Of a stretch of DNA of 64,000 nucleotides, positions 16,833-53,836 are shown in pieces (positions within the stretch are counted from its first letter, which is position 1; every line of letters starts with the position of its first letter). A program made the translations under genes and the position numbers. A model generated the notes under the pieces. That model searched no databases, was not told where the DNA came from, and saw nothing but the letters and a program-made list of their open reading frames with translations. Source of the stretch: an uncultured Victivallales bacterium (GTDB lineage: Bacteria; Verrucomicrobiota; Kiritimatiellia; UBA8416; CAYOBW01). Location of the stretch: NCBI GenBank assembly GCA_964550025.1, contig CAZJYI010000022.1:18249-82248 (forward strand), in the 5' to 3' direction.

Positions 16833-16835
16833 CCG

Positions 16836-19445: not shown

Positions 19446-19492
19446 CCTCTACCTCCACTTCCTACTCCCGCTATCGTCAAACGGGATACGAT

Positions 19493-22400
19493 CTACTCAA
19501 GACACGTAATGGTCCCGCCATCGTCGGAGACAAACAGCTTCCCGTATGCCGCCGACATGCCGTCGAAGACGGGGAAGGCATCCAGAGGCGTTTCGGCCAC
19601 AACCTTGCCGTCAGCGGCAGACAGCGCCATCAGCGTGATTCCCTTGCGCCCCGCAAAAACGTCGTCCGAGTGTGACCAGTCGCCTTTCGCGCCGGCGACA
19701 AAAAGGGTCTCGCCTGCCAATACCATCGCCCTCACATGCATCGCCAGCGGATGGTTCCAGACGTCGTTCGCGCCGGTCGTTTTCGTTTTCCTGCCTCTGC
19801 GTGTCTTGCCGGTCGCCGGCGGATCGGACTTCGTCGCCGCACGAGATGCGCACGAAAGGAAGTACCCTTCCCCGTCCTTCAACGCCGCGCAAACGGCCCT
19901 TGCCCGGCCGTAGTGATACAGGCGTTCTTCACCCATGGCAATCAGCTTGCTGCCGCGACCGGCGCCTGTCGGAACGCCGGTTCTGGATACCAGGGAGCCA
20001 CTCCCCACCTTCCAGAAGGTGCGATGGAATTCCGATCGGTCCAGGAAGCCGTTGGCCGAATACAGGTGGTCATTGCCGGGATCATCGAGGCGCTGTCCGT
20101 CCAGGTCAAACGCGATGTGACGCATGTAGACGTACTCCCCATCCGACGACAGAACATCCGGCAACGCCCCGGGCATGGAAAGCCAGTTGACCTTCGTCTG
20201 CCGCCCATCTGGGTCGAGCAGATCGAGACGCGTCCTGGAAAGCGGCTTCCCCGTCACCGGGTCCAGGCGATACAGCGTGATTCCTCCCGTGAGGAACCCG
20301 GATTTCCCTGACGCAAAGTAGACCGCCCCCTCCTCCACCAGCACGCTGCCGGAAACCGGCCAGAGCGACTCAAGCTGACCGAGGGATATGAACTGGCGGC
20401 CATTCACGGCGGCGAAGAAGCGCCATGCCAGCTTCCCGGTGCCGGCGTCGAGACAGTATACATGCCCGTCCCGCGAACCGAAGATTGCCATTCCCCGATG
20501 GAACGTGGGCGACGAGTCAACACGCGCACCGGCGGTAAACGTCCATATGGCGCGGCCGGTTTCGACATCGAGTGCACTCACCTCGTGCGCATCAACCGAA
20601 GAGACAAACACTTTGCCGTCCGCCACCACCGGTTGGGTCAGCGTGCCGCCAAGCTGCCTGCCCCAGCGCTTCTTCGGCGCCGAAGAAACGGCTGGAGCCG
20701 AGGCCCCGGACCGCGCGTTGTCGCCCCGCAGAGTCGGCCATGAACCGGGGTCGTCCCGTACGGCATCCAGGCCAGCCGCACCAAACGCAGGACCCTTCTC
20801 CAAACGGTCCACATCCGCGACCTCTCCGCCGCCATCCCCTTCGGCCTCCGGCGCGAGCGCCAGGTAACCGTTCAGCTTCGCCTCCGGGTAGCAGGCACAC
20901 GGGTTCGGCGGAGCGTAGACCAGACCGTTCGCGGGCATCGAACCAAAGAGACACGCGCCGCGAATCCAGTGGGTCGCGCGCATCTCCCCGCTGGTGGTGT
21001 CGACGAACTCCACGCCGGGCCACGACATAACCAGGAAACGATCCACCGCCTTCGGCATGGAGCAGCGGTGGTGGCAGACGCCCACGCCTTGATCCGTGTC
21101 GATCGGCACTTCGCGCGTCCGCTTTCCGGTCTTCAGATCGTACCCGACCAGCAGACCGATTGCTCCCCTGTTCTTCACCCACGCATCGCTTTCCGGAGTC
21201 CATATCGTCCCGTCGATGACGCACATGCCGATCGGGGACCTGTAGACGCTGGCCTTGCAGTCAACACTCCACAGCTTCCGTCCATCCTCAGCCGAGAAGC
21301 CGGTCAGGCTCCTTCCCTCGGCAAAGCAGACCACACCATCCTCCACGAAGAAGCCAGGGCTCGAATTCGTTGCCAGCTTCTGTTTCATCGGTTTCGATTG
21401 TGTCCACAGCCTGTCCCCGCTCTCGAGGTCGAGGCAGTGAACGGCATGGTCACTGTGGAAAAACACACGCGCGCCGTCAGAGACAAGCGTCAATGGCGTG
21501 ACCCCGCCGCACGATTTGCTCCATCGGGTCCGGCCCGAGTTGGTGTCGATCGCGACAACGGAGCGCGCTTCCGCCGCAACGGCGATGGTGAAACCTCCCG
21601 TCCTCTGCGTCTTGCCCTGATAGGGAACGGGCTCCTTCTTGTCGTTTGCCACCAGGAGCAAGGTCCCGTTCGTGTAGATGATCTCCTCCGTATACTCCGT
21701 ACCCTCGAACGTGCGGAGAACCTCCCCCGTAGCAGCGTCGAGCTCGGAGGCGGGAGCATGCAGCCCAAGCGTAACATACACGCGGTCGGCGGCCGCCACC
21801 AACCGGCGCGTCAACTGGAACGGACCGCTCTTCAACCCGAATAGCTGGGTGTGCCAGATCGGTATCGGCTGTTTCCAGAGCACAATGCCGTTGAACGCAT
21901 CGCGTGCCGTCAGCGACCATTTCGACGACAGATACACCGAAGCCAACGGCCCCTCGTCCATGATGGAAAAGACGCGCCCCCCGGACGTGACCGCCACGCT
22001 CACGCTGGACATCTTCTCGTGGCTTCGCGTCCCGCGCGGATCATCCTCCCATTGCAGCTGCCGCGGCGGCCCCGTGCGCTTGTCCTTCCCGACAGGGTTG
22101 CCTGAAGCGTTGTGCAGGAAATGGCTCCAATCATCTATCTCCGGCGGGACGGCCTTCTTGTAGGCATGCCAGCCCTTTGGCGCCGGAGATTGAGCGGTGA
22201 GTGGCAAGCGGCGAGTGGCGAGTGGCCTTCTCGTCAGAAGCACACCGCGTGGTGCCAGCACTCTGGCTATCTCATCATTTGCCACTTGCCATTCGCCACC
22301 TGCCACTATCAGGTTCACAAGGTTGTCGGTATACGGCAGCCGCTTCCCCTTCAGCAGACTGGCCGAAACACGTCCATAACACCCGGCCTCCCTGATCCTG

Positions 22401-22606
22401 TCCCGGACCCGGTCTACTTCGGCCTCCGACGCTTCCAGGCACTGAAACACCGCGCCCGGGCTCTTCCAGAACGCGGCCGTGTCTGCTCCGCCCCCGATGC
22501 AAACCACGAGCCCTCCCTGAACGCCATACTGCGAAAGCGGAGTCTCCGCCAGGCAGCACAATGCGGAGGCCCAGATGACAAGGACCAAACACCTCACGCT
22601 CTTCAT
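19493..22606 (-). CDS. P1: exported methyltransferase-like + double PQQ/BamB-like beta-propeller protein (uncharacterised family)
   Basis: Signal peptide MKSVRCLVLVIWASALCCLA. Rossmann-like part: GGLVVCIGGGADTAAF…FQCLEASEAEV…LPYTDNLVNLIV…ARVLAPRGVLL. Family motifs: DDWSHFLHNASGNPV, HHRCSMPKAVDRF, IRGACLFGSMPANGLVYAPPNPCACY, SWPTLRGDNARSGAS, and the C-terminal PVFDGMSAAYGKLFVSDDGGTITCLE. Confidence 0.75.
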   Translation of the reverse strand: MKSVRCLVLVIWASALCCLAETPLSQYGVQGGLVVCIGGGADTAAFWKSPGAVFQCLEASEAEVDRVRDRIREAGCYGRVSASLLKGKRLPYTDNLVNLIVAGGEWQVANDEIARVLAPRGVLLTRRPLATRRLPLTAQSPAPKGWHAYKKAVPPEIDDWSHFLHNASGNPVGKDKRTGPPRQLQWEDDPRGTRSHEKMSSVSVAVTSGGRVFSIMDEGPLASVYLSSKWSLTARDAFNGIVLWKQPIPIWHTQLFGLKSGPFQLTRRLVAAADRVYVTLGLHAPASELDAATGEVLRTFEGTEYTEEIIYTNGTLLLVANDKKEPVPYQGKTQRTGGFTIAVAAEARSVVAIDTNSGRTRWSKSCGGVTPLTLVSDGARVFFHSDHAVHCLDLESGDRLWTQSKPMKQKLATNSSPGFFVEDGVVCFAEGRSLTGFSAEDGRKLWSVDCKASVYRSPIGMCVIDGTIWTPESDAWVKNRGAIGLLVGYDLKTGKRTREVPIDTDQGVGVCHHRCSMPKAVDRFLVMSWPGVEFVDTTSGEMRATHWIRGACLFGSMPANGLVYAPPNPCACYPEAKLNGYLALAPEAEGDGGGEVADVDRLEKGPAFGAAGLDAVRDDPGSWPTLRGDNARSGASAPAVSSAPKKRWGRQLGGTLTQPVVADGKVFVSSVDAHEVSALDVETGRAIWTFTAGARVDSSPTFHRGMAIFGSRDGHVYCLDAGTGKLAWRFFAAVNGRQFISLGQLESLWPVSGSVLVEEGAVYFASGKSGFLTGGITLYRLDPVTGKPLSRTRLDLLDPDGRQTKVNWLSMPGALPDVLSSDGEYVYMRHIAFDLDGQRLDDPGNDHLYSANGFLDRSEFHRTFWKVGSGSLVSRTGVPTGAGRGSKLIAMGEERLYHYGRARAVCAALKDGEGYFLSCASRAATKSDPPATGKTRRGRKTKTTGANDVWNHPLAMHVRAMVLAGETLFVAGAKGDWSHSDDVFAGRKGITLMALSAADGKVVAETPLDAFPVFDGMSAAYGKLFVSDDGGTITCLE
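22199..22308. repeat. two inverted arrays of four heptamer repeats inside the P1 coding sequence
   Basis: 22199-22226 reads GAGTGGC AAGCGGC GAGTGGC GAGTGGC. 22281-22308 reads GCCACTT GCCATTC GCCACCT GCCACTA, the reverse complement of nAGTGGC-type units. Arms match at roughly 26 of 30 positions with a 54-nt spacer. Confidence 0.7.
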
Positions 22607-22629
22607 CCGCGAACATCTCCTCTCTCCGT

Positions 22630-24981
22630 CTACCGGATCTCATTCAGCGAGCCATCGAGGCGGACCTCCTGCCCGGCGGCCGTCTCGAATCCAAATGACT
22701 TGTTGCCGTAACGAATACTACAGGGGTTGCCATTGAGCGACCGGACGGCGGAGCCCGTCAACGCGCCGCCTTTCCACGTCAGGTCGACTTCGAACCCGCC
22801 ACGCGCGCGCAACCCTTTCACCGAGCCATCAGCCAGTGCCTGCGGGAGGGCAGGGAGTAGCTCGAGCGTGCCGTCGTGGCTCTGCAGGAGCATTTCCGCA
22901 ATTGCCGACGTGCAACCCAAGTTGACGTCCGTCTCGAACATCCTCCTCTCACGTCCTCGCTCGCCCACGGCGAAGAGATTTGGCCACGAGCTCTTCGCCA
23001 GGATGCTACGCAGATGCCCCCAGGCCTTGTCGCCGTCACGCAGACGCGTATAGCAGCACAACACCCACGCCGCAATGCCCTGGTATTCCGGCGAATCCGC
23101 GGCACCATACTCTACGCGGCAATCAAGCGACTTACGGGCCGCCTCGAACAGCCTTGGCGTCTGCTCCCTCGTGATCTGGTTTCCAGGACAGAGTCCCCAC
23201 AAGTGGGAGATGTGCCGATGCCCTTTGTTGTGTTCATTGAACGGCTTCTCCCACTCCAGGAGCCGGCCATCCTCACCCATGCGCATTGGCATCAGGCGGG
23301 AGCGGAGCTCCTCGAGCTTCTTGCGGAACGGTTCGTCAACGCCAAGGACCTCGCTCGCATCAATGGTGTTGCTGAACAGGTCGTGAATGAGCTGCGTGTC
23401 CATGGTCGGCGCCATCGAGAGCGAGACGACGTGTCCGTCATCTGTAATGAAGCGGTTTTCCGGCGACGTGGACGGCCCCGAAACCATGTGGCCCGTTTTC
23501 GGGTGCTCGATCAGATAATCAACCAGAAACTCGCAGGCCTCCTTCATGATCGGGTAGCTGCGCTCCCGCAGGTACTCCTTATCCCCTCCGAAGAGATAGT
23601 GCTCCCACAAGTGCTGGCAGCTCCATGCTGGCGCCATCGGCCACATGCCGTAGGGCGGATTGCCGATCGCGGCGGTGTACCACCAGGCGTCGGTTGCATG
23701 GTGCGCCACAAAACCGCGACAGCCGTAGGTCGCTCTGGCCGTGACGCGCCCGCGAGGACGCAGGCTGTCAATCATGTCGACGAACGGTTCGTGGCACTCC
23801 GCCAAGTTGCACACCTCGGCAGGCCAGTAGTTCATCTGGATATTGATGTTGATGTGATAGTCGGCGTTGTAAGCCGGATCGAGGCCGCTCACCCATTTGC
23901 CCCACAGGTTGACCGCCATGGCCCCGGGACGGGAACTGCTCATGAGCAGGTAACGGCCGAACTGGAAATACAGCGCGATCAAGGAGGGGTCGTCGGCGCC
24001 CGCGGCAAATGCCTCAAGACGTCTGTCGGTAGGAAGACGTGATGCTTCTCTGCTGCCAAGCTCCAGCGTCGCCCTGCGAAACAGCCGCCGGTGTTCCGCA
24101 ACGTGGGCCTGGCGCATCTGCGCGTAGTCCTTCTCGGCAACGGCGGCCAACTGTGTATCGCAGATAGCGCCCGGATCCTCGCCACGGTAGTCGGTCGCGG
24201 CCACCAATCGAATTTCAACGGAATCCGCCCCTTCAACGCGGAATCCCTTCTTTGCCTCCCCTACCCTTCCGTTCTCGGCACGAATCAACAGGTGCGATTC
24301 GTACCCCACGCCGCGCCATCCCGCGGCGCTCTTGCCCGTGGCCACACCGGAAACGACCAGGCGGTCGCCCCCTCCGGTTTCGACCTTCGCCTTGCCGCGG
24401 GTGAATCGGGCGTCCAGTGTCAGGCCGCCCGGCTTGTCGCAGGTGAAGCGCATCACGACGACCTGGTCCACCGGACTGACAAACACCTCGCGAGTGTATG
24501 CGGCGTCACCGATCTTGAAGCGGACCGTGACAATGCCGGTGTCCAGGTCCAGCTCGCGGCGATAGTCGGTATACTCCTTCCCGCCCCCCGGGTACCTGAA
24601 TGAGAGGTCCAGGTCTCCCAGCGTCTGGTAGGTGTGCATGCCGAACTCGAGCCGTAGCCCGAGCATCTTCTCCTCCACCAGCCTCTCGGCTTCGTAGTAC
24701 TTGCCGTCGAACATCAACCGGCGGACGGCGTCGAGGTACTTGTGCCCACCGGGCTTGTCGCGCTGCATCGGCTGCCCGGACCAGATCGTGTCTTCATTGA
24801 ACTGGATCTGCTCGCGGTGAACCCCGCCCTGCACCATCGCCAACAGCCGCCCGTTGCCGAGCGGCAATCCGCACGTCCAATCCTCGGCGGGTTGCTCGTA
24901 CCAGAGCTTGAGATCGGACGCAGAGCCCGTTGAGAGGATGGCGACCATCAGGGTGAGTATGAGTGTTTTCGTCCGTTTCAT
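22630..24981 (-). CDS. alpha-L-fucosidase, GH95 family
   Basis: N-terminal LWYEQPAEDWTCGLPLGNGRLLAMVQGG…IQFNEDTIWSG. Also NLWGKWV…YHININIQMNYWPAEVCNL and GFVAHHATDAWW, which are canonical GH95 blocks. Signal peptide is MKRTKTLILTLMVAILSTGSA. Confidence 0.9.
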   Translation of the reverse strand: MKRTKTLILTLMVAILSTGSASDLKLWYEQPAEDWTCGLPLGNGRLLAMVQGGVHREQIQFNEDTIWSGQPMQRDKPGGHKYLDAVRRLMFDGKYYEAERLVEEKMLGLRLEFGMHTYQTLGDLDLSFRYPGGGKEYTDYRRELDLDTGIVTVRFKIGDAAYTREVFVSPVDQVVVMRFTCDKPGGLTLDARFTRGKAKVETGGGDRLVVSGVATGKSAAGWRGVGYESHLLIRAENGRVGEAKKGFRVEGADSVEIRLVAATDYRGEDPGAICDTQLAAVAEKDYAQMRQAHVAEHRRLFRRATLELGSREASRLPTDRRLEAFAAGADDPSLIALYFQFGRYLLMSSSRPGAMAVNLWGKWVSGLDPAYNADYHININIQMNYWPAEVCNLAECHEPFVDMIDSLRPRGRVTARATYGCRGFVAHHATDAWWYTAAIGNPPYGMWPMAPAWSCQHLWEHYLFGGDKEYLRERSYPIMKEACEFLVDYLIEHPKTGHMVSGPSTSPENRFITDDGHVVSLSMAPTMDTQLIHDLFSNTIDASEVLGVDEPFRKKLEELRSRLMPMRMGEDGRLLEWEKPFNEHNKGHRHISHLWGLCPGNQITREQTPRLFEAARKSLDCRVEYGAADSPEYQGIAAWVLCCYTRLRDGDKAWGHLRSILAKSSWPNLFAVGERGRERRMFETDVNLGCTSAIAEMLLQSHDGTLELLPALPQALADGSVKGLRARGGFEVDLTWKGGALTGSAVRSLNGNPCSIRYGNKSFGFETAAGQEVRLDGSLNEIR

Positions 24982-25015
24982 TGGAAACCCTCTCTCGGCT
25001 CGCGAGGACGCACGG

Positions 25016-27679: not shown

Positions 27680-27714
27680 GGCTCAAGTCCTCCTCCAGTC
27701 AATGGTCCGTATGC

Positions 27715-29987: not shown

Positions 29988-30003
29988 CACGCGCACTCCT
30001 TGT

Positions 30004-31326: not shown

Positions 31327-31330
31327 GATT

Positions 31331-32716: not shown

Positions 32717-32719
32717 GGT

Positions 32720-35965: not shown

Positions 35966-35998
35966 CTGCTTCTTCTCCTCATTGACGCGGACCTCTCC

Positions 35999-36059
35999 GT
36001 AGCGGAACTCGCCAAGAGTTCCGACCTGGCCCTTCGGAAGCCTCCGCGGCTTCCGCTAC
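35999..36059. repeat. REPIN-like doublet of GTAG-headed hairpins
   Basis: GTAGCGGAACTC-GCCAA-GAGTTCCGAC … CGGAAGCC-TCCGC-GGCTTCCGCTAC. Each half is GTAG plus an 8-bp stem hairpin, one on each strand. The outer GTAGCGGAA and TTCCGCTAC are also mutually complementary. The TAG of the minus-strand GTAG is the sulfatase stop codon (36056-36058). Confidence 0.65.
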
Positions 36060-40125: not shown

Positions 40126-40126
40126 A

Positions 40127-43100: not shown

Positions 43101-43546
43101 ATCAACTCGCCTGTCTTGGCCCCGACGCAGCACAGGTAGCCGTCATCGGAAACGAAGTAGACCTTCCCCGCGTCATAGACCGGGGCGAAGCGGACGGGGC
43201 CGCCTGTCACGTAGCGCCACTTCAGTGCTCCCGTCTCCAGGTCAAAAGCCATCACCTGGTCGATCACGCTCGACGGCACGAAGAGCAGTCCCTGACCCGC
43301 TACGGGCGCGTAGCTGAAATCGGCGCACATGCGGTACTGGTGCTCGTAGGCGGGAGCGGGTCTGCCGAGTGAAAGCGACCACTGCTGCTTGATGCCTTTG
43401 GGCAACCCCTCACCGGTGGCCCCCGACCGCATGGCGTCATGCCGCCACTGCGGCCAGTCGGCACCCAACGAAACCTGGGCAGCCACCGAGACAGACAGGA
43501 ACACGACTTGTAAACGCGTACTCATGGAGAGCTGCCGTCCGTTCAT
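40127..43546 (-). CDS. P3: domain-permuted member of the methyltransferase-like/beta-propeller family
   Basis: It starts directly with the propeller that is C-terminal in P1/P2/P4/P5 (ADWPQWRHDAMRSGAT…). A Rossmann-like block sits mid-protein (YALGWGDGAAVLELAK…RIVVMEKDSAAVAKARGHL…VQVIP), followed by ADWTHEAAGADNSFV. The Cys motif lies near the C-terminus (MRAGCTSSLIPAGGVMSAPMLGHGCVCNY). AAGGAG precedes ATG 43546. Confidence 0.75.
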   Translation of the reverse strand: MNGRQLSMSTRLQVVFLSVSVAAQVSLGADWPQWRHDAMRSGATGEGLPKGIKQQWSLSLGRPAPAYEHQYRMCADFSYAPVAGQGLLFVPSSVIDQVMAFDLETGALKWRYVTGGPVRFAPVYDAGKVYFVSDDGYLCCVGAKTGELIWRRRGVPESNPDMLMLVNGRMVSRWPARGAPVLQEGTIYFGAGIWPEEGVYQNAIDARTGGVIWRSDALSFVKDGMCDHGANYDISLPPQGYSAVINGKLAVASGRTLAAWFDLKTGKLDPYTCFYVKFAVPRGAWYVAGNDRFWVQGGNWFAASKHALPPKPAGTKVVRSPLSISQRAPGAATFVMENRPFLCSDKAVSSPRSEGLESAYSDWIVTDDTMYATVHGDAEKYAVVRGHTFVRHKPMGVPFDRLVARDLTRPEWRVYEKPAKKNKGPYDVIEFPVKWEMKTSLKAIIKAGNQLIAGEENKVAAIDIPKEGGAPSVAWEAAVKGTPVNALVSDGKLVVVSDLGHVHCFGAGPERDVAFRVEPKVEHSPKNGYAYALGWGDGAAVLELAKDPEWRIVVMEKDSAAVAKARGHLNGKGIHGRRVQVIPVEEGLASTPYWASLVVVNDPVLFGDKEKTLSHALDAMRPFTGKMELTASVDEGVMRKLIAGKADYRLSGSTLARSSAPEGAADWTHEAAGADNSFVSRDKLVKWPLGVLWYSGDIDRFFTPETQYQHDRNPYPLVQDGRLYIITIDRLHAVDAYTGSYLWGTKMPSTAYLNGRLMDSRLYGRPTERNYVVAGDRVYCITGKSIRMYNTQTGEDMGALSIPEEFHAEAVKSTGPLTKRYTQTGEQKAVQSVPEWTEVRLWDDLLISMLGRNLVALDRRAGETKWMRTASRRAITYALGGDALYGIDCEPDKFIMDRDQFQKTATLFALNPTTGEELWSTDFNYPSWVKTTMTSLRPWMKPPMPRIGYNARHKLLIVSYNVNDAIAFHAGDGAESWRYADPKMGKFAKFSPPNILDDHLIMTLSAGGLGYLVDIKTGKRLREQCEIPNARTCGRPVGNDHLVSYRDAATELYDIDSGRTIPFNSMRAGCTSSLIPAGGVMSAPMLGHGCVCNYPMFASLALYHLPGSDAFRPDAVKESWGADQRAQAATPKAKRQKGR

Positions 43547-43549
43547 GCC

Positions 43550-46500
43550 TCACTCCTTTTCTCCAAAGCAAACGAGCGCCCCGTTCTTCAGGCTCACAAA
43601 CAGCTTTCCATCCGCGGCCGACATGCCGTCCCACGTCGGCACGTCCGCGAGCTCGTACCGGGCCACTTCCTTCCCGTCTTCCTTGGAGGCGATGACAAGC
43701 AGACCGCCCATCCTGCCTTCGACAGCTTTGAAGATGTCGTCTTCGGGGAACACATTCGGCGTGCCGGCAACGAACACATTGTCTTCATCGAGAAGCATGG
43801 CGTCGGGATTGACATGAATGCCCGTGGCCCAGTTTTCGCGGTAATCGTACTTGCTGACGGGAACGTACTGCGGCCTCTTCTTCTTGCCTGGCCGGGGCTT
43901 GCGAGGTCTGGCACGGGAAGGCTCCTTCTCATGCCGGGTCATGCAGAAGAATGAAAGACCCGCCTCCGCCGGGTTGATACTCTGCGCGTCGGCAGCCGTG
44001 CGAATGACTCGCACGCCATATACCCTGTCCTTCTCCACAGCGATCAGGTCGCCGTCCGGAATCGCCACCTGCGGGACCCGTCGCGAAGAAGGAACGATAC
44101 GGGAAAGGGTCCAGTAGCTCCGGTGATGCTTGGCGTCGTCCAACATGAAGGACCCCGTCAGCAGATGGTCCCGGTGCTTCTCGATGTCGTCCACCTGCTC
44201 CAACTCGGGAGTGAACGCCCAGTGCGACAGGTAGATCAACTTCCCATCGGTCACGAGAATCTCGTTCTTGTTGCCGCGAATCGCGGTTCGCTTGATTGTC
44301 TTGATGATGGGCTCGCCGCCATCTTCGTAGGGACCGGTTAATACTCTCGCGTGCAGCTTCGTGCCGGCGAGCGGGTCAAGCGCGTAGAGGATGATCCCTC
44401 CATCAAGAAAGGTGCTTCTGCCGGCGGATACATACGCAACGCCGTTGAGCATAAGGACACTGCCGTGAACCGGCCAGAGCGACTCAACCTGGCCGAATGC
44501 GCAGGCGAGGTGTTCCCCCGCCGGCGCGGCGCGGAACTTCCAGACGAGCTCACCACGGCTGGACTCCAAGCAGTACACCCAGCCGTCTCGGGCGCCAAAA
44601 AGGACGAGTCCGTCGTAGTATGTCGGCGGTGTGTCGACACGGCCTCCTGCGCTGTAGCGCCAAAGGACCTTCCCGCTGTTGCCATCCATGCCGTAGACCG
44701 TATGCTCATCGACTGAGGCGATGTAGAGTCTTCCGCCGGCGATTGTCGGCTGTGTTGTGCCGGCCGGGAGCTTTGCCTGCCACAGAACCTCGAGCTTCGA
44801 CGGCACGTCCGTCTGAGCCAGCGCGCTCCTCGTAGCGTCCTTCCTGTAGGTTGGCCACGAACCGGCGGGGTGAGACCCGAGAGAGACTCTGCCGTAGGCC
44901 GTTCCCTTCACCAGCAGGTTGTCCAGCTTGCCGGCCTCCAGGTTGGCTTCTCTCGCCCCGGTCAGCGCCCAGAAACCGTTCAGGGTCGTCTCGTTGACGC
45001 ACGCGCAGGCGTGGGGTGTTGCGTACAACAGCCCGTTACACGGCATGCCTCCCAAGCTGCACGTGTTGCGTGCCCACGGGTGGCTCAGGGAGTTGGTGGA
45101 GTCGAGATATGAGAAGTCGTTTCCGCCGGACGTCGAGGTGATGATGTACCGGTCGGTGGCCTTGTTGCGGTGGCAGCGGTCATGCCCCATCGGTCCCCCC
45201 CGAGTCTTGCCGCGTCCCTGGATCGCCTCGCCGGTAGCCGGATCCAGCCCCGCATGACTACCCTGTACCCACACCGCACCGTTGGCGATGAGGAGGTCCG
45301 GCGAAGACACGTAGCCAAATGGAACCCGCCCCTTCGATCGCCATAACTCCTTTCCGTCTTCCAGGGAATAGGCAAACAACCCGTTCGATTCGGCCCTGTA
45401 GACAGTGCCGGCTTTCACAACGATCGAGGCATTGCCCCCGGCCCAACGACTGTTTCTCGCAAGCCACGAGGTCTCGACGGGCACGGCCCACAGCTCCTTG
45501 CCTGTTGAGCGCTCCAGGCAGACCAGCTTCTTGCCGTACTGGTAGACCATCCGCTCGCCATCCACGGCAATCGACAGGCCTTCGTAGTCCCTGGTCCTGT
45601 CTCCGGAGATCTCCCAAACGCGACGCCCCGTCGCGGCCTCAATGGCCATGATCGAATGGCGGCGCTCCTGCTCCAGGAGCTCTTGCGCCGTGAGGTACCT
45701 GGCACGCGGGGTGTAATGCTTCTCACCAAACGCCATACGGCTTGGGAACTGTATCCCTTCCTTCTCGTAGCCGTAGTTCTTCGACTGATCGCCCGCGGCA
45801 AGATAGAGGACGCCTTCGTAGTAGATGATCTCCCGCGTACCTTCCGTTCCCTCGTAGCGGCGCCGTGTCTTCCCGGTCGCCGCGTCAAAGGCGACCACCG
45901 GCGCCGAGATTCCCGGTGTCGCGTACAGCGTATCGCCGATGGCCACCGCGCGTCGGTTCAATTGCGGAGCGGCCCCTTTCATATGGTGGGTGATGTTCTC
46001 CCAACCCGCGCACGGATGCGTCCAGAGCACTATCCCGTTGAAGGCATCCCTTGCAACAAGCCTGTACTTGCCCGGCATCACGGGGAGCGAAATCGGCGCG
46101 CTGTCCTCGATCGAGAAGATGCGCCCCTTGGCCGACACCATGGCTGACAGACTGGGAAGCGTGGAGTGCGCCCTGTCCCAGAGAGGGTAGTTCAGCCACT
46201 GCATCCCTTTCGGCGGCGCCACGACACTGTCCTGCGCCACCGCGTTGTTGTCGGGGCCGTGAAGATAGTGAGTCCACTCGTCGATATCCGGCGGCCACGA
46301 CTTGACGGTCTTCTTCCCATCGGCGAACAGCGACCCAAGCGGCGCGAGCACGCGCAGCAGTTCATCCTCAGGGACCTTCGCGCCGGAGCCCACGACAATC
46401 TCGCTGACCAGGTTGTCAATGTAGGGGAGCTTCTCTCCGTCAAACAGAACGACCGAGACCTTGCCGTAGCACCCGGCCGCCTGGATTCTCTTCCGGAGAC

Positions 46501-46690
46501 CGGCCACCTTCGCGGCCGAGCTCTCCAGGCCTTGAAAAACCGTGCCGGCCTTCTGCCAGTCCTCCGAAACGCTTTCCAGCGCATCCGCACCGATGCAAAC
46601 GACCAGGCCGCCCTCGACCTCTACGGACGCTGCGGCCAAACCGAACGGCACAGCCAGCAAACTCAGCCAGATGGCAATCGTCTCTTTCAC
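43550..46690 (-). CDS. P4: exported methyltransferase-like + double PQQ/BamB-like beta-propeller protein
   Basis: GTG 46690 overlaps the upstream sulfatase stop (GTGA at 46687-46690) and gives VKETIAIWLSLLAVPFGLAAA. Motifs: GGLVVCIGADALESVS, FQGLESSAAKV, LPYIDNLVSEIV, RVLAPLGSLF, DEWTHYLHGPDNNAV, HDRCHRNKATDRY, ARNTCSLGGMPCNGLLYATPHACACV, SWPTYRKDATRSALA, and C-terminal PTWDGMSAADGKLFVSLKNGALVCFGEKE. The track start at 46804 would overlap the sulfatase by 118 nt. Confidence 0.75.
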   Translation of the reverse strand: MKETIAIWLSLLAVPFGLAAASVEVEGGLVVCIGADALESVSEDWQKAGTVFQGLESSAAKVAGLRKRIQAAGCYGKVSVVLFDGEKLPYIDNLVSEIVVGSGAKVPEDELLRVLAPLGSLFADGKKTVKSWPPDIDEWTHYLHGPDNNAVAQDSVVAPPKGMQWLNYPLWDRAHSTLPSLSAMVSAKGRIFSIEDSAPISLPVMPGKYRLVARDAFNGIVLWTHPCAGWENITHHMKGAAPQLNRRAVAIGDTLYATPGISAPVVAFDAATGKTRRRYEGTEGTREIIYYEGVLYLAAGDQSKNYGYEKEGIQFPSRMAFGEKHYTPRARYLTAQELLEQERRHSIMAIEAATGRRVWEISGDRTRDYEGLSIAVDGERMVYQYGKKLVCLERSTGKELWAVPVETSWLARNSRWAGGNASIVVKAGTVYRAESNGLFAYSLEDGKELWRSKGRVPFGYVSSPDLLIANGAVWVQGSHAGLDPATGEAIQGRGKTRGGPMGHDRCHRNKATDRYIITSTSGGNDFSYLDSTNSLSHPWARNTCSLGGMPCNGLLYATPHACACVNETTLNGFWALTGAREANLEAGKLDNLLVKGTAYGRVSLGSHPAGSWPTYRKDATRSALAQTDVPSKLEVLWQAKLPAGTTQPTIAGGRLYIASVDEHTVYGMDGNSGKVLWRYSAGGRVDTPPTYYDGLVLFGARDGWVYCLESSRGELVWKFRAAPAGEHLACAFGQVESLWPVHGSVLMLNGVAYVSAGRSTFLDGGIILYALDPLAGTKLHARVLTGPYEDGGEPIIKTIKRTAIRGNKNEILVTDGKLIYLSHWAFTPELEQVDDIEKHRDHLLTGSFMLDDAKHHRSYWTLSRIVPSSRRVPQVAIPDGDLIAVEKDRVYGVRVIRTAADAQSINPAEAGLSFFCMTRHEKEPSRARPRKPRPGKKKRPQYVPVSKYDYRENWATGIHVNPDAMLLDEDNVFVAGTPNVFPEDDIFKAVEGRMGGLLVIASKEDGKEVARYELADVPTWDGMSAADGKLFVSLKNGALVCFGEKE

Positions 46691-48297
46691 TTCTTTGCCT
46701 TCTTCCTTTGCTTCCTCTTCGAATAGCTGATCTGCGGACGAGGCACATTCTCCTCGGGTCCGCGCATGACATACGGCTCCCACGACTTGCGCGCCTTCTC
46801 CCATTCCTCCAGTGTCCGCGTCGGATACCAGGCGGGCCAGCCGTACCGGTTGAAGTCGTACTCCGTGGCGTTCGCTTTCATCCAGTCATCCATGACGGGC
46901 ATCGGACACTTCTCGGGGAAGATACCAAGCGCCCGAAAATCCTCCGACACGCCCTGGTCATCGATGACGTTCACGCGCCAGTTCTCCAGCTCGGCAAGCA
47001 AGCCGGCCTTGACTTCCGCGTACTTCGGATTGTCGGCGAGGTTCTTCACTTCATGAGGGTCGCGACGAAGATCGAAGAGCTCAATCTCCGGCTTGGTGGG
47101 CGCGAAGAAGGCGGCCTGCTCCGGCGTAAGTTGCCCCTTGAGATTCATCACGTTCATCTCGGCCAACACGGGGTATGCCCCCTCCTTGTAGTGGTTGTAC
47201 TGGCAATAAGCCCGCTCCGGCATGAGGTTGAGAATCAGCTTGTGATCTCTGGAGCGAATCGCCCGCATGGCGTCGTGTGTCTCGTCCATCTTGTCGCGCG
47301 CCGCGAAAACATACTTGCGCTGCTTGACCTCTTGCCCGAGGAGGTCCTTGCCGTGCAGCGGGACCGGCGGTTTGATGCCGGCGGCTGCCAGGATCGTGGC
47401 GCAGATGTCGATCGACATCACCAGGTCGTCGCTTACCTGCCCCGGCTTCACCTTGCCCGGCCAGCGCATGATCATCGGGATGCGAATCCCGCCGTCATAG
47501 AGGAATTGCTTTCCCCGAATGTGGCAACGGCCATGGTCGCCGATGAAGAAGACAATCGTGCTGTCCGCCAACCCTTCGTCGTCCAGGCGCTTCAACAGCA
47601 CACCGACCTCCCGATCCACCAGCTGCATCTGCTCCAGCCCGTTGGCCCAGTCGCGACGAACGAAAGGCGTGTCGGGGTAATATGGGGGGATCTCGACATC
47701 CTTGATGTCAATCGGCCGCTCCGGGTCACGTTTCCAGGCGCGGTGCGTACCGCCAAAGGTAATGCGCGCGAAGAACGGCTGCCCCGGTTTGCGCTCGGAC
47801 CAGTCTTCCCCCATGAAGAGCTCAGACCTCGTGTTTGGCGTGAAGTTGCAGTCCGTCTTCCAGCTCATGATGGCCGTGAAGTAGCCCGCATCCTGAAACA
47901 GGTGGGGTATCGGCCTGATGCCGTGCGGCAACGGCTGCTTATTGTGCTCGCGATGCTGGTTGGCTCCGATGTGGTTCTGGTGAAACCCCGTCATCATGGC
48001 CGACCGCGACGTCGAGCAGACCGGCGACGTGGTAAACGCCCGCTCGTACCGAATGCCTTCCGACGCCAGCTTGTCCACATGCGGGGTGTGGATGCCCTTC
48101 GTGCCATAGCAGGACAGGTCCGGCGACCAGTCCTCAATACAGATCCAAAGGATGTTCGGTTTCGCGAGCTGCGCCCGGGGCTGCGCCGCCATGCAGCTCA
48201 GTCCCGCCAGGCATGCGGATAGTGCTCCGAGCAGGTGCATCCCGGCTCTTCCTCGGCTCACTTCATTCTTGTTCACTTGGTTCATTGGATTCCCCAT
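46687..48297 (-). CDS. S1 sulfatase
   Basis: PNILWICIEDWSPD, SPVCSTSRSAMMTG, FFIGDHGRCHIRGKQ. The start is uncertain: ATG 48297 abuts a REP-like element, while ATG 48240 (MHLLGALSACLAGLSCMAA) is also plausible. Confidence 0.85.
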   Translation of the reverse strand: MGNPMNQVNKNEVSRGRAGMHLLGALSACLAGLSCMAAQPRAQLAKPNILWICIEDWSPDLSCYGTKGIHTPHVDKLASEGIRYERAFTTSPVCSTSRSAMMTGFHQNHIGANQHREHNKQPLPHGIRPIPHLFQDAGYFTAIMSWKTDCNFTPNTRSELFMGEDWSERKPGQPFFARITFGGTHRAWKRDPERPIDIKDVEIPPYYPDTPFVRRDWANGLEQMQLVDREVGVLLKRLDDEGLADSTIVFFIGDHGRCHIRGKQFLYDGGIRIPMIMRWPGKVKPGQVSDDLVMSIDICATILAAAGIKPPVPLHGKDLLGQEVKQRKYVFAARDKMDETHDAMRAIRSRDHKLILNLMPERAYCQYNHYKEGAYPVLAEMNVMNLKGQLTPEQAAFFAPTKPEIELFDLRRDPHEVKNLADNPKYAEVKAGLLAELENWRVNVIDDQGVSEDFRALGIFPEKCPMPVMDDWMKANATEYDFNRYGWPAWYPTRTLEEWEKARKSWEPYVMRGPEENVPRPQISYSKRKQRKKAKK

Positions 48298-48358
48298 GTA
48301 GCGGAACGCGCCAAGCGTTCCGATCCCCCAGGTCGGAAGACTTGGCGTCTTCCGCTAC
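48298..48358. repeat. REPIN-like doublet of GTAG-headed hairpins (same family as 35999-36059)
   Basis: GTAGCGGAACGC-GCCAA-GCGTTCCGATCCCCCAGGT-CGGAAGAC-TTGGC-GTCTTCCGCTAC. Both halves have a GCCAA loop when read on their own strand. Relative to the 36-kb copy, stem positions differ in a compensatory way (TC/GA vs GC/GC; CC/GG vs AC/GT). Confidence 0.65.
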
Positions 48359-48388
48359 CTTGCGCCGGCCTCCGCAGCGCCTCCCCGC

Positions 48389-51300
48389 TCAGGATCCGTT
48401 CCCAAGGCAGACCAGGTCACCGTTTTCCAGGCAAAGCAGGACTTTGCCGTTCGCCGCGATCAGGCCGTCCCAGACGGGAATTGCCGGCAGTTTGAGACTG
48501 CTCAGCTTGTCGCCCGATTTTGCATCGACAACCCACAGAAGGCCGCCTTCCGCCCCGTCGAGCAGGGTAGCCTGTTTGTGGAGGCGCGCGTTGACGCCGG
48601 GATCGTAGATGTTCTCCCAGTCCTTCTTCTCGTCCACGACCCGCGGCGCACCGGCCACGACCAGAGCCTTGTCGGCAACCGTCAATCCTGTCGCGAGAAT
48701 CGGGATCTCCCGGCTCCAGTCGTACTTGAAGAGGTTCTTCGTCGGTTGCCCGTAGTTCGCATCTTTCTTGCTCTTGTTGGCCGGCTTCAGCAACGGTCCC
48801 GATTCGTCGATGCAAAAGAGGTGATAGGCGAGCGGTGTCATCCAACGGAAATCGGTCTGGACTCGACCAAACCCGAAGATCGACTCCCCGCGGTGAACCA
48901 GCAGGCGCCCGGCCGGGTTGGCCCGTCCTGACTTGTACCACTGGTTCCATCCCGAGGAGAACTTCGTGCCGTACGTCCAGTAGCTGCGGTGGAACCAACT
49001 GCCGTCCAGGAAACCGGTGGGGGTGAACAGATGGCGAACCTTCTCCTCCTGCTCCTTCAACGAGTCCGCCGAAAGCGTATTCCCATCGAAGTCAAGAACC
49101 TGGGAATGAAGGAAGAGATAATCCTCGTTGGCGGACAGAACGTCCGACAGCCCCACCGGCATGGACAAGCCCCGAACATACTCGTGCAGTTCCTTGCCGG
49201 TTGCCGCGTCGATCTGGTCCAGTGTCTTCTCGCTCCGGACCTTACCGGTCTTCACGTCGAGGAGAAAGAGCCGCATGCCGCCGTCCAGGAAACGAGACCG
49301 CCCGGCAAGGCAGTAGGCCGTCTGCCCCAGAACAAGGACGCTGCCGTGGACCGGCCAGGGGGACTCGAACCGGTCGAGCGCGATCATCTGCCGGCGTTCC
49401 GGCGCGGCATCGAATCGCCACGCCAGTTCCCCCAGGTCAGCCGTCAGGCAATAGACAGAGCCGGCGGCGGAACCGAACACGACCCGCCCGTCAACGTATG
49501 TGGGCGGCGAGTCAATGCGCGCGTCTACCGCATACCGCCACAGGCGTTTGCCGTTCTCCGCATCAAGCGCGTAGAGCGCGTATTCATCCGCGCGTGCGAC
49601 AAAGACCTTTCCGCCTGCCGAGATGCACGACGTGAGCTTGCCGCCAATGCTCGCCTTCCACCGCTCTTTGAGTTGCCCGTCCACAACGGTACTTGCAGCC
49701 CCGCTGCGGGAGGCGTCGTGCCGATGGGTCGGCCAGTCACCCGTACCGGCCTTATCGTCAGGGGACACCGCGATGCCGAACGCCGGCCCGCGGGTCAGCC
49801 GCCCGCCGCCCGAACGCGGCTTCTCACGGTAGGTCACCTGATCGGGGGAGACCAACGCATTGAAGTACGACAGCTTGGTCGAGAGGTAGCAGGCGCAGGG
49901 ATGCGGCGGGGCGTAGAGAATGCCGTTCGCCGGCATGACACCATAGGTGCAAGCGCCGCGGACCCAGTGGTTGACGTCGTACGCCTTGGCATCGACGTCG
50001 ACAAGCTCGATGCCGGTCCTCGACGCGATAATGTACTTCTCCGTGGCGCGGCCGCGGTGACAGCGATGATGGAACCAGCTCGGCTTCTTGTCCATGCTGA
50101 AGCTCTCTTCCACCTCGCCGGTCTTCAGGTTAATCCCGACAAACGTCCCGGGCGCGCGACCGCTGGCGGTCTGGCCATACCACATTCTGCCTTGCATGAC
50201 GAAGATGTCCGTGGGTGAATGATGACCCGTTGCCGGCTGCTTCGCAGCCCACAGTTGCTTACCGTCGGTTGCCGAAAACGCGGTGACCTTCTTGGTCATA
50301 CCGGAGAAGAGGACGAGATCGTCATGCAGAACGACGCTCGATCCCCGGCCGAACTGGTACTGCTTGCTCTGTTCGACCTCGGACTTCCACCGCCGCTTGC
50401 CGGTCTTGCGGTCGAGACAGACAACACCTTCGTAGTCGTTGAACACCACGTGCCGGTCATCGGCACAGAGACTGGATTCCGAAACCAGCGACTCGTTCCG
50501 CCACAGCTCCTTCCCCGTGGCTGCATCGATCGCGGTCACATAGCGCGACTCACGCGGATACGTCTGCCCAAAGATCATGTTCCGCTCCACGACCATGTCC
50601 AGGTGCTCGCGTTTGTGTCGGAAGAACTTGCCCGTGCTGCTCACGACGCTGAAGATGACGCCGTCCGAAACCACGAACTCGTAGGTTCCCTCCGTTCCCG
50701 CGTAGGTCCTGAGTGTCTTTCCCGAAACGGCGTCGAGTTGCATGATGGGCGCGTCGATGCCGAGGGTCACGTAGACTTTACCTTCCAGGGCTACCAGTCG
50801 ACGGGGCAAAACGACGGGACCGTTCTTCATGGGCCAGAGACGGGTGTGCCATTCCGGGATGTCACGCTCCCAGAGCAGGGCGCCGTTGTAAGCACTCTTG
50901 GCAATGAGCGACCACTGCGACGGTAGTAGGATCGAGACCGGCGATCCCTTGTCGACAATGTAGAAAACCCTGCCCCCGTCCGACACCATCGAGGTGAAAC
51001 TGCTCATGTGCTCGTGCTGCCGCCCGAACCGCGGACCGCCGAACCACTGCAGGTGACGCGGGGGACCCACGCGCATGTCGCGTGACACCGCGTTGCCCGA
51101 CGCGTCGTACAAGCTATGCGTCCAGTCATCCTGGTCCGCCGGGATCGTCTTCGCGATCCTCTCCCAGCGGCCACCGCGTTCGACGTGGGCCGCGCCCCCC
51201 GGCGCGAGCACCCGCAACATCTCCGCCTTGGAAACGCCGATGCCGCCCTGGACAAACAGCAGGCTCACCAGGTTGTCGTTGTATGGCAACGCCCCGCCAT

Positions 51301-51583
51301 CCCACTCGCGCACGGAAACGGGACCGTGCAGCCCTCTTTTGAGGAGTGTCTCACGCGCGGCCGCCACATTCTCGCTTGAAGCGTCGAGTCCCTGGACCAG
51401 GATATTCTCGTTGATCCGCAGCGCGGCCGTGGCGGCGCCGTCACCACAACCCACGTGCACAACCACCCCGCCCCTCAGACCGCTCTCCTTGACGAGCTCC
51501 AACGGCCCGGCATATGCCGTCACGCAGGCCAATGCACAGGCCAGGAGGCATCTAACGCGCCTATTACATCTATTCGTTATCAT
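48389..51583 (-). CDS. P5: exported methyltransferase-like + double PQQ/BamB-like beta-propeller protein (only member with an intact SAM-binding motif I)
   Basis: MITNRCNRRVRCLLACALACVTAYA; GGVVVHVGCGDGAATAAL (GxGxG), LVQGLDASSENV, LPYNDNLVSLLFV, LRVLAPGGAAHV; DDWTHSLYDASGNAV; HHRCHRGRATEKY; VRGACTYGVMPANGILYAPPHPCACY; DWPTHRHDASRSGAA; C-terminal PVWDGLIAANGKVLLCLENGDLVCLGNGS. Confidence 0.8.
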   Translation of the reverse strand: MITNRCNRRVRCLLACALACVTAYAGPLELVKESGLRGGVVVHVGCGDGAATAALRINENILVQGLDASSENVAAARETLLKRGLHGPVSVREWDGGALPYNDNLVSLLFVQGGIGVSKAEMLRVLAPGGAAHVERGGRWERIAKTIPADQDDWTHSLYDASGNAVSRDMRVGPPRHLQWFGGPRFGRQHEHMSSFTSMVSDGGRVFYIVDKGSPVSILLPSQWSLIAKSAYNGALLWERDIPEWHTRLWPMKNGPVVLPRRLVALEGKVYVTLGIDAPIMQLDAVSGKTLRTYAGTEGTYEFVVSDGVIFSVVSSTGKFFRHKREHLDMVVERNMIFGQTYPRESRYVTAIDAATGKELWRNESLVSESSLCADDRHVVFNDYEGVVCLDRKTGKRRWKSEVEQSKQYQFGRGSSVVLHDDLVLFSGMTKKVTAFSATDGKQLWAAKQPATGHHSPTDIFVMQGRMWYGQTASGRAPGTFVGINLKTGEVEESFSMDKKPSWFHHRCHRGRATEKYIIASRTGIELVDVDAKAYDVNHWVRGACTYGVMPANGILYAPPHPCACYLSTKLSYFNALVSPDQVTYREKPRSGGGRLTRGPAFGIAVSPDDKAGTGDWPTHRHDASRSGAASTVVDGQLKERWKASIGGKLTSCISAGGKVFVARADEYALYALDAENGKRLWRYAVDARIDSPPTYVDGRVVFGSAAGSVYCLTADLGELAWRFDAAPERRQMIALDRFESPWPVHGSVLVLGQTAYCLAGRSRFLDGGMRLFLLDVKTGKVRSEKTLDQIDAATGKELHEYVRGLSMPVGLSDVLSANEDYLFLHSQVLDFDGNTLSADSLKEQEEKVRHLFTPTGFLDGSWFHRSYWTYGTKFSSGWNQWYKSGRANPAGRLLVHRGESIFGFGRVQTDFRWMTPLAYHLFCIDESGPLLKPANKSKKDANYGQPTKNLFKYDWSREIPILATGLTVADKALVVAGAPRVVDEKKDWENIYDPGVNARLHKQATLLDGAEGGLLWVVDAKSGDKLSSLKLPAIPVWDGLIAANGKVLLCLENGDLVCLGNGS

Positions 51584-51701
51584 TGCTCCTCCATTCGTTC
51601 CTCACTACTCACTGCTCTGTCACTCTCCCAATCCAATGATAGGGAGTCGCGAGAGCATTCCCAGTCGAGAATGGCACTTGCCTGAGCGCGTTCCGATCCC
51701 C

Positions 51702-51831
51702 AGTAGGTCCCAGTTGCACTGGGACCATCGAACGGCGACAGCTCAGTCGCCCCACAACTCGCTCTTGAGCCGCGACCGTCTCATTCCCGCAGCCTGGCGT
51801 TCTCTGGGTCCCAGTGCAACTGGGACCTACT
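51702..51831. repeat. perfect 25-bp inverted repeat pair; each arm is itself a GTAG-headed hairpin
   Basis: AGTAGGTCCCAGTTGCACTGGGACC (51702-51726) and its exact reverse complement GGTCCCAGTGCAACTGGGACCTACT (51807-51831). Each arm contains GGTCCCAGT-TGC-ACTGGGACC (9-bp stem). The left arm is preceded by GCGTTCCGATCCCC, which is shared with the 48.3-kb element. Confidence 0.7.
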
Positions 51832-51882
51832 CCCCCGCAATCATGGCACCCGAGAGTCCCCATGTTGACAGAGCCAGACTAC

Positions 51883-53700: not shown

Positions 53701-53836
53701 GCTTTCTCCTTGTGGTGTCGTTTCGATTGTCTTCATGGGTAGACCCGGTGCCCTGCTGATAGAAGCCACACTATGCAGGTCCCCTCGCCGCAGTGATAGA
53801 AGGAATTGCGCACGAAAACATGCCTGAATGCGACAG

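Follow-up and report, generated by a model that had tools for sequence, protein, structure and literature searches.

A stretch of 64,000 nucleotides (nt) from contig CAZJYI010000022.1 of an uncultured Victivallales bacterium, referred to below as the window, encodes five large exported paralogs, P1 to P5. These proteins belong to a family that, as far as profile comparisons indicate, has neither a Pfam or NCBIfam model of its own nor a characterised relative, and that appears to be a distinct variant within the pyrroloquinoline quinone (PQQ)/BamB-type propeller superfamily. Gene spacing and the identities of the neighbouring genes show that P1 to P5 are operon partners of S1 sulfatases and of exo-glycosidases/fucosidases. 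The reading tentatively favoured here, with less than even confidence, is that they are periplasmic accessory components which bind or present a sulfated glycan, with a cysteine cluster that would act as a structural staple and a Rossmann domain that would be a relic. A role in glycan processing is plausible for the window and for close relatives of its proteins, not for the family as a whole. Bacteria of the Planctomycetes-Verrucomicrobia-Chlamydiae (PVC) group play a major part in degrading recalcitrant sulfated algal polysaccharides, compounds that matter for marine carbon storage, and to our knowledge these bacteria do not possess the SusC/D machinery of Bacteroidota. A family of more than 10,000 sequence clusters, with a three-domain architecture in two permuted forms and coupled here to sulfatases and fucosidases, is therefore a target for biochemistry.

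Five exported paralogs in a cluster of sulfatase and fucosidase genes

As the initial annotation had described, the five genes are open reading frames (ORFs) on the minus strand that together occupy about a quarter of the window, and a hydrophobic, signal-like N-terminal segment is present in all of them (Table 1). The longest ORF of P4 reaches 46804; the GTG at 46690 is the better start, because its overlap with the stop codon of the upstream sulfatase gene is 4 nt (GTGA) and the resulting protein has a signal peptide. By eye, the N-termini of P1 to P5 resemble signal peptidase I substrates and share no consistent lipobox. Among 61 family members, 60 begin with a signal-like segment and only 8 carry a twin arginine. 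P1, P2, P4 and P5 can be aligned end to end at 33-40% identity, and individual paralogs have orthologs of their own elsewhere (76% identity for P5, 74% and 60% for P3, 66% for P4), which points to an old specialisation of the paralogs and not to recent duplication. Their isoelectric points range from 7.7 to 8.7, and a basic loop with a net charge of at least +4 is found in 41 of the 61 family members.

The paralogs are embedded in a co-directional cluster of 17 genes, in a window with a G+C content of about 62%. The cluster contains, in order, a GLAA-B beta-helix gene, P5, a sulfatase, P4, P3, a glycoside hydrolase (GH) family 29 gene, a sulfatase, P2, a GH82-like gene, two GH43-like genes, a DUF1080 gene, a sulfatase, GH95, P1, an immunoglobulin (Ig)-domain protein and a sulfatase-GH106 fusion, so that P1 has GH95 upstream and the Ig-domain gene after it. 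Intergenic distances lie between -8 and +91 nt, with the exception of one artefactual overlap of a longest ORF, and several junctions are 4-nt start/stop overlaps. The tight, often translationally coupled contact with sulfatase and fucosidase genes that had been noted earlier holds, with gaps of -4 nt (sulfatase/P4), +3 nt (P4/P3), +1 nt (P3/GH29), -4 nt (GH29/sulfatase), +3 nt (P2/next gene) and +23 nt (GH95/P1). The identities of the S1 sulfatases, GH29 and GH95 were established with Pfam, the neighbouring sulfatases matching PF00884 at 1e-40 to 1e-93. An AraC/XylR-type regulator gene lies immediately upstream of the cluster, and its flanks hold further sulfatases, GH29, a GH141-like gene and beta-helix genes.

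The 461-amino acid (aa) product of the gene after P2 (31331-32716, minus strand) had been taken for a beta-helix protein. It has no Pfam match and is instead a homolog of GH82 iota-carrageenases (E 4.5e-35 to PDB 1H80/3LMW, aa 27-307), so the locus may target a carrageenan-like or mixed sulfated galactan/fucan and not pure fucoidan. Together with the GH141-like gene and the GLAA-B beta-helix gene it represents the recognisable endo-acting candidates of the locus. Because such candidates are already in place, the paralogs need not be "the" depolymerase, which weakens one of the roles considered in the initial annotation.

Domain architecture and the permuted form of P3

All five proteins match PQQ_2 in Pfam, in two to three stretches each, at E 1e-32 to 1e-38 (1.7e-38 for P5). 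In P1, P2, P4 and P5 the signal peptide is followed by the Rossmann domain, propeller 1 and propeller 2; a common architecture had been claimed for all five proteins and applies to these four, which are co-linear. A model of P5 generated with AlphaFold2 (AF2) from a 61-sequence alignment reached a predicted local distance difference test score (pLDDT) of 90.5 and a predicted template modelling score (pTM) of 0.92, and the high pTM suggests that the three domains pack as one body. In this model, propeller 2 presents helical insertions besides a basic, poorly ordered loop.

P3 departs from the canonical order. The N-terminal ~460 aa align with the last propeller of P5 from the DWP..R.D..RSG block onward (31% identity over 184 aa, E 3e-19), and the remainder aligns to the canonical Rossmann domain, propeller 1 and the Cys-cluster part (hhalign probability 99.8%). 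A C-terminal propeller, a match to the DxWxH expression, the His of HxRC and the C-terminal DG(M/L) block are all absent from P3, and its AF2 model is well packed (pLDDT 82.1, pTM 0.86). The permuted order is not an accident of one genome, because ~60 clusters align with P3 over its whole length (44-74% identity), including proteins of the cultured Planctomycetes bacterium CA13 and of Thermostilla marina. Judging from these alignments, P3 is a member of a sister subfamily, apparently old and conserved, whose propeller 2 has been relocated to the N-terminus.

Conserved motifs and the cysteine cluster

Five sequence blocks had been put forward as a signature of the family; the His/Cys cluster among them is family-specific, and two others are generic propeller starts. 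The DWP..R.D..RSG block opens propeller 2 in P1, P2, P4 and P5 and the N-terminal propeller in P3, and small stand-alone PQQ_2 proteins begin with the same type of motif right after the signal peptide (WPNWRG, WPQFHGP). The D(D/E)W(T/S)H...DASGN block, which by eye resembles the DWP block, occupies the equivalent position at the start of propeller 1. Since stand-alone PQQ_2 proteins open likewise, these two of the five blocks would represent the generic first strand of PQQ_2 propellers, and DxWxH and DWP..R.D..RSG were rejected as catalytic signatures. The marks specific to the family are, on present alignments, the H-x-R-C / R-G-x-C-x-x-G-x-M-P-x-N-G / H-x-C-x-C cluster, carried by the last blades of propeller 1, and, in propeller 2, the FLDDSWFHRS block.

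Within the cluster, H505, R507, C508, R542, C545, N553, Y557, C563 and C565 (P5 numbering) are invariant in 61 canonical sequences. Sequences of the P3-type (42 compared) retain all four Cys together with the Arg that precedes the second of them and the H-x-C-x-C His, but not the His and Arg of HxRC, N553 or Y557. The order of strands alone places the cluster in loops of the final two blades, where it should adjoin blade 1 and the conserved DxWTH/QH residues. In the P3 model, the cluster loops of the aa 1030-1092 region fall below a pLDDT of 50 (aa 1068-1073 and 1083-1098) within an otherwise confident structure; the same region of the P5 model has means of ~79-96 per 10-residue block. The low confidence of the P3 loops suggests that their ordering may need a ligand or metal.

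The methyltransferase-like Rossmann domain

The family consensus and P5 keep motifs I, II and III of class I S-adenosylmethionine (SAM) methyltransferases, and 45 of 61 family members retain GxGxG. Motif I is intact in P5 (HVGCGDG), GxGxG is lost in P1 (CIGGGAD), P2 (CIGRDAM) and P4 (CIGADAL), and P3 reads LGWGDG, the glycine motif being degenerate across the P3-type. A methyltransferase-like domain had been assigned to all five paralogs, and generic propeller and methyltransferase hits were all that had been expected from Pfam. The expected PQQ_2 matches occur in all five, but the methyltransferase assignment exceeds the Pfam thresholds only in P5, with 32.5 bits for Methyltransf_25 (cut-off 27) and 28.6 bits for Methyltransf_11 (cut-off 21.2); P1 remains below threshold at 20.7 bits, and P2, P3 and P4 have no match.

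The conserved motifs and the P5 scores would fit true SAM-dependent methyltransferases of glycans or proteins, in which the propellers serve as substrate-binding modules. This is very improbable, as the signal peptides predict export and we know of no SAM supply outside the cytoplasm, and as the glycine loop has decayed in P1, P2, P4 and the whole P3-type while the remainder of the protein is conserved. 

Searches for characterised relatives

The family had been described as uncharacterised, and this description stands: searches of Pfam, NCBIfam, the PDB (sequence and profile) and Foldseek searches with the P5 and P3 models returned no characterised enzyme family beyond generic propeller and methyltransferase folds. 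The PDB sequence and profile searches gave only designed propellers, BamB, quinoproteins and weak methyltransferases, and Foldseek searches of the PDB only tetrathionate hydrolase, BamB and quinoproteins, one propeller each, with a query template modelling score (TM-score) of at most 0.28. In Pfam, the S1 sulfatase domain PF00884 matched none of P1 to P5, and the CAZy propeller profile Beta-prop_CGLA matched P5 alone, at 16 bits against a cut-off of 26.8 and over 25 residues. Full-text literature searches found no paper on the family.

Public names of family proteins are generic, and BamB is among those in use. Membership in BamB was rejected (TIGR03300 at 53-90 bits against a cut-off of 285, PRK11138 at 44-62 against 423), as was membership in the PQQ-dependent dehydrogenases, for which TIGR03075 gives 43-55 bits against a cut-off of 480 and covers 80-130 residues, or one to two blades. 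By these profile scores, the names BamB and quinoprotein are apparently wrong for these proteins. The idea that P1 to P5 are PQQ-dependent periplasmic dehydrogenases oxidising sugars draws on the repeat type, on structural matches to PQQ alcohol dehydrogenases and on GFO/IDH/MocA, DUF1080 and ThuA genes of oxidative glycoside pathways that recur near family members. It is hardly credible given the TIGR03075 scores, the occurrence of the same repeats in cofactor-free BamB and the presence of the family in many lineages that are anaerobic, such as Kiritimatiellales, Sedimentisphaerales and Desulfobacterales.

Distribution and genomic context of the family

A profile search of 1.84 billion representatives, clustered at 50% identity, delimited a family of 10,236 clusters at E <= 1e-30, the top 150 of which are all full-length and score above 1000 bits. 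Planctomycetota and Verrucomicrobiota account for most of the clusters. At least 578 loci were located in species-representative genomes, mostly of Planctomycetota and also of Verrucomicrobiota, Armatimonadota, Desulfobacterales and Acidobacteria. Runs of family genes occur elsewhere, with five consecutive genes in a Planctomycetaceae metagenome-assembled genome (MAG; locus L074, 4760-20985) and a P3-type gene plus two canonical ones in Thermostilla marina (locus L086, 10001-20132). Tandem expansion therefore appears to be a habit of the family and not a peculiarity of the window.

The close relatives that lie beside sulfatase or GH genes come from Kiritimatiellae/Victivallales MAGs, strain CA13 and Thermostilla marina. 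A 59% relative of P5 is found in a locus with two sulfatases, GH2 and two further paralogs. A 74% relative of P3 lies with GH29, GH95, a lambda-carrageenase-like gene and four sulfatases, and a 60% relative in strain CA13 has two GH95, GH78 and a sulfatase nearby. The P3-type gene of Thermostilla marina follows three sulfatases, GH95 and GH43 and precedes the two canonical paralogs, while two more P3-type loci contain GH78, BNR, sulfatase or GH123 genes. A 41% relative of P4 has GH106 and GH16 nearby, and GH150-like and PL11-like genes (PL, polysaccharide lyase) are present in related loci.

Among the immediate neighbours that could be identified, sulfatases are the most frequent in both subfamilies, at 5 of 108 neighbouring ORFs for the P5-type and 5 of 74 for the P3-type. 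Other glycan-type immediate neighbours of the P5-type include an FAD-oxidoreductase with F5/8C (three cases) amid a scatter of families, and those of the P3-type include FG-GAP (three), BNR_2 (three), GH78 (two), GFO/IDH/MocA (two) and PL11 (one). In loci of the P5-type, the density of sulfatases within 2.5 kb exceeds that at 2.5-10 kb ~1.8-fold, and 75% of them are encoded on the same strand as the family gene closest to them. Of the neighbours that can be recognised, glycan genes are thus the most frequent class, yet they make up a minority, and the link is clade-dependent.

Other genes recur in the surroundings of family members. Very large HZS_alpha proteins, fused to NPCBM or FGE-sulfatase domains, were observed within 10 kb at four independent loci (L003 6095-8917; L088 1-1251; L090 15186-18455; L091 21161-23144). 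Genes of oxidative glycoside cleavage, namely DUF1080/3-keto-disaccharide hydrolase, GFO/IDH/MocA, ThuA and xylose-isomerase-like TIM barrels, are often near family members (27715-28716 of the window, minus strand; loci L001, L088, L089, L090 and L091); their proximity may be due to chance, such families being abundant in these phyla. Additionally, a URO-D-like gene (uroporphyrinogen decarboxylase/MtaA-type methyltransferase fold) lies near the cluster in the window (61296-62294, minus strand), and this family recurs beside twin-propeller family members (locus L001, 6388-7362; 2 of 108 immediate neighbours).

Proposed role of the twin-propeller proteins

In the favoured reading, P1 to P5 would be exported by the Sec pathway and act in the periplasm, each as one rigid body composed of the Rossmann domain and two PQQ_2/BamB-type propellers. 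The propeller faces and the basic loop would bind a polyanionic chain, either holding it for the neighbouring exo-enzymes or presenting it to them, and each of the old paralogs, which share 33-40% identity, might serve a different glycan substructure. The four-Cys cluster with its Arg and His, which by strand order is placed beside the N-terminal DxWTH strand that should close the ring, would be a structural zinc site or double-disulfide staple and not a catalytic centre, and the Rossmann domain would be a non-catalytic relic, at least in P1 to P4. A structural Cys site is suggested because the four Cys, R542 and H561 are kept in both architectures, while the His of HxRC, N553 and Y557 are not. 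The combination of binding role, staple and relic is favoured because no polar feature other than the cluster is shared by both architectures and because four of the five paralogs have a decayed SAM loop.

Several observations weigh against this reading. First, D152, H190, K253, R262, E302, H505, R507, N553, Y557, D860, H865 and R866 are invariant across 61 sequences and the four canonical paralogs, and such a polar set suits an enzyme of one chemistry better than binders of different ligands. Second, a pure relic does not explain SAM-binding motifs that are intact in 45 of 61 members. Third, immediate neighbours are heterogeneous and most family members elsewhere are not beside glycan genes: in unselected samples of 83 P5-type loci and of 59 P3-type loci from metagenomes, a sulfatase occurs within 10 kb in only 19 and 12 loci, respectively (~20%), GH29 in 3 and 3, and GH95 in 1 and 0. 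Fourth, a Cys-rich protein of ~380 aa is encoded directly downstream, often overlapping, in 12 of the 83 P5-type loci (~14%), from Desulfobacterales, Acidobacteria, Phycisphaerales, Pirellulaceae and Sedimentisphaerales. A universal link to glycan loci, which five of five hand-checked P3-type contexts had suggested, was rejected on the counts of the metagenome sample. The co-occurrence with glycan genes predicted by the initial annotation is accordingly seen for the closest P3 and P5 relatives, which lie among sulfatases, GH95, GH29 and GH78, but not for unselected loci, and its proposal of a glycan-processing family fits this locus and its close relatives, while the wider family is only loosely tied to glycan genes.

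The invariant polar residues make a new enzyme family nearly as likely as the favoured reading, although it too is a doubtful proposition. P1 to P5 could be lyases, hydrolases or other bond-breaking or modifying enzymes acting on sulfated glycans. Their active site would be located on the propeller 1 face, the Cys/His/Arg cluster would either bind a catalytic metal or form the centre, and the paralogs would differ in substrate like the adjacent sulfatases. The polar constellation is shared by the four canonical paralogs and 61 homologs of 43-76% identity, the genes stand in an operon with exo-enzymes, and the best structural neighbour, tetrathionate hydrolase, is a cofactor-free propeller enzyme with a sulfur oxyanion substrate. 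In addition, several glycan-active families are built on propellers, and the GH150-like and PL11-like genes of related loci belong here. Nevertheless, H505, R507, N553 and Y557 are lost in the P3-type, no similarity to CAZy-linked Pfam models was found (Beta-prop_CGLA being below its cut-off), Foldseek gave generic matches (query TM-score 0.28 at best), endo-acting candidates are already present in the locus, and most members elsewhere are without glycan neighbours. Any lyase or hydrolase activity of P1 to P5 would be purely conjectural.

The Cys-rich partner bears on a general role in the periplasm or envelope, in which the proteins would be BamB-like scaffolds, or partners or substrates of a type VII (MacB/LolCDE/FtsEX-like) ATP-binding cassette (ABC) machine, and the window copies a local expansion amid abundant sulfatases and glycosidases. 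The partner carries a signal peptide, the motifs C..PVFRYA.ERW, PVFGRGR and G.C.C..K..NPG and a C-terminal transmembrane helix, and has no match in Pfam, NCBIfam or the PDB. Downstream of it, most partner loci encode an FtsX-type permease and/or a LolD/MacB-like ABC ATPase, and the module also occurs 2.3 kb downstream of a P4 relative. Its recurrence in several phyla, the low frequency of sulfatases in unselected loci and the presence of the family in lineages not known as glycan specialists agree with such a role, which is still rather unlikely: a search of the window for the ~380-aa protein/FtsX/ABC module found no homolog, sulfatase is still the commonest identifiable neighbour, and chance hardly explains either the translational coupling to a sulfatase, GH29 and the GH82-like gene or the GH95 and sulfatase neighbours of P3 relatives across phyla.

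A more far-reaching and improbable version would combine both themes. The family might be a new class of periplasmic propeller enzyme with a Cys/His metal centre, responsible in PVC bacteria for an unrecognised step in the breakdown of sulfated algal glycans and, elsewhere, matured or driven by the Cys-rich partner and the type VII ABC transporter, in analogy with the assembly of the metal centre of nitrous-oxide reductase. An enzyme would found a new family, and a metal-centre enzyme would represent a new CAZy-type or desulfating family. If the favoured binding role is correct, or if the proteins are scaffolds, they would show how PVC bacteria organise periplasmic glycan processing. In either case, the database names BamB and quinoprotein are corrected here, and the clade-specific glycan link should guide target choice.

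Further features of the window

The coordinates of the paralogs, their domains and the Cys clusters are compiled in Table 1, together with the loci of the partner module in other genomes. A possible sixth paralog at 1459-4584 (plus strand) was rejected, since this 1041-aa protein has two sulfatase-domain stretches and is a tandem sulfatase; a GH29 fucosidase gene precedes it (97-1410), and a beta-helix protein and a LacI-type regulator (6992-8020) follow. At the end of the 17-gene cluster, a single ORF of 1557 aa (12159-16832, minus strand) combines an S1 sulfatase domain at the N-terminus with a GH106 alpha-L-rhamnosidase and a sugar-binding domain of the GH2 type. Between the two glycan gene blocks, at 9885-11934, an AAA_21/AbiEii-like ATPase gene (10660-11934, minus strand) adjoins a 186-aa ORF without matches (9885-10445, plus strand), a pair that looks like a small toxin-antitoxin or defence-type insertion.

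Table 1. Twin-propeller paralogs, their domains and Cys clusters in the window, and partner module loci in other genomes.
Feature	Coordinates	Strand	Basis
P1, canonical, 1037 aa, GxGxG lost	19493..22606	-	ORF list, Pfam
P2, canonical, 1081 aa, GxGxG lost, longest basic loop (17 K/R in 62 aa)	32720..35965	-	ORF list, Pfam
P3, domain-permuted, 1139 aa: signal peptide, homolog of propeller 2, degenerate Rossmann domain, Cys-cluster-bearing propeller 1	40127..43546	-	Alignments, AF2 model
P4, canonical, 1046 aa from GTG at 46690, GxGxG lost	43550..46690	-	ORF list, Pfam, junctions
P5, canonical, 1064 aa: signal peptide, methyltransferase-like Rossmann domain with intact GxGxG, propeller 1, propeller 2	48389..51583	-	ORF, Pfam, AF2
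Co-directional 17-gene cluster embedding the paralogs	12159..53769	-	Pfam, PDB match, gene junctions
P5 methyltransferase-like Rossmann domain, aa 27-145	51149..51505	-	Pfam match aa 41-131; alternating beta-alpha-beta in model; motifs I-III conserved in family
P5 propeller 1, aa ~150-600, opens with DDWTH motif	49784..51136	-	Model strand pattern; aligns to P3 core, 99.8% probability
P5 propeller 2, aa 616-1064, opens with DWPTHRHDASRSG, FHRS block, basic low-confidence loop aa ~922-958	48392..49738	-	Motifs, model
P3 N-terminal propeller, aa ~29-510, homologous to C-terminal propeller of P1, P2, P4 and P5	42017..43462	-	BLASTP E 3e-19 vs P5 aa 600-1064; model strand pattern
P5 His/Cys cluster: HHRC 505-508, RGAC 542-545, H561, CAC 563-565	49889..50071	-	Motif positions; conservation in 61 sequences
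P4 His/Cys cluster: HDRC, RNTC, CAC	44999..45184	-	Motif positions
P3 Cys cluster: ARTC, RAGC, H1088, CVC; no His of HxRC	40271..40459	-	Motif positions, alignments
P2 His/Cys cluster: HQRC, RGSC, CAC	34307..34492	-	Motif positions
P1 His/Cys cluster: HHRC, RGAC, CAC	20891..21073	-	Motif positions
Partner module loci	L002 13487-16731; L012, L022, L029, L046, L048, L056, L061, L064, L065, L072, L074; L089 15561-18720		

Comparison with known systems

The N-terminal domain is akin to class I SAM methyltransferases (Methyltransf_11/25), with motifs I-III in the family consensus and P5; in contrast to these enzymes, it is exported and fused to two propellers, and its glycine loop is missing from P1, P2 and P4 and has degenerated in P3. 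BamB (YfgL), a non-catalytic scaffold of the outer-membrane BAM complex, is likewise exported and built from PQQ_2-type blades, and its scaffold nature was counted as a likeness to the window proteins. It is, however, a lipoprotein of ~380 aa with a single eight-bladed propeller, compared with 1037-1139 aa, two propellers, a Rossmann domain and a four-Cys cluster in P1 to P5. PQQ-dependent alcohol and glucose dehydrogenases share the propeller repeat type and the periplasmic location, but differ in whole-protein architecture.

The endo-fucanases of families GH107, GH168, GH174 and GH187 occur in the same kind of locus as the window family. The solved endo-fucanase structures that a review lists, of GH107 and GH168, are (beta/alpha)8 barrels, and the word propeller is absent from that review (PMC11943901). 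In a 2024 multi-omic study of fucoidan-grown Planctomycetota, GH168 was the upregulated endo-fucanase, and propeller, PQQ and BamB proteins are unmentioned (PMC11685898).

Tetrathionate hydrolase (PDB 6L8A/7CQY), the best Foldseek match with a target TM-score of up to 0.63, is an exported propeller enzyme that needs no cofactor and has a sulfur oxyanion as its substrate. The match covers one propeller at a query TM-score of 0.28 and 13-15% identity, and full-length similarity was not found at the sequence level (E ~3e-4 over ~55 residues, one blade). Finally, the propeller enzymes of glycan breakdown, GH150 lambda-carrageenase, PL11 and the tandem-propeller GH74, gave no sequence or profile match and are not among the top 50 Foldseek matches. 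They resemble the window proteins as exported propeller proteins of polysaccharide loci, an analogy in possible working only, and GH74, like the family described here, uses two propellers.

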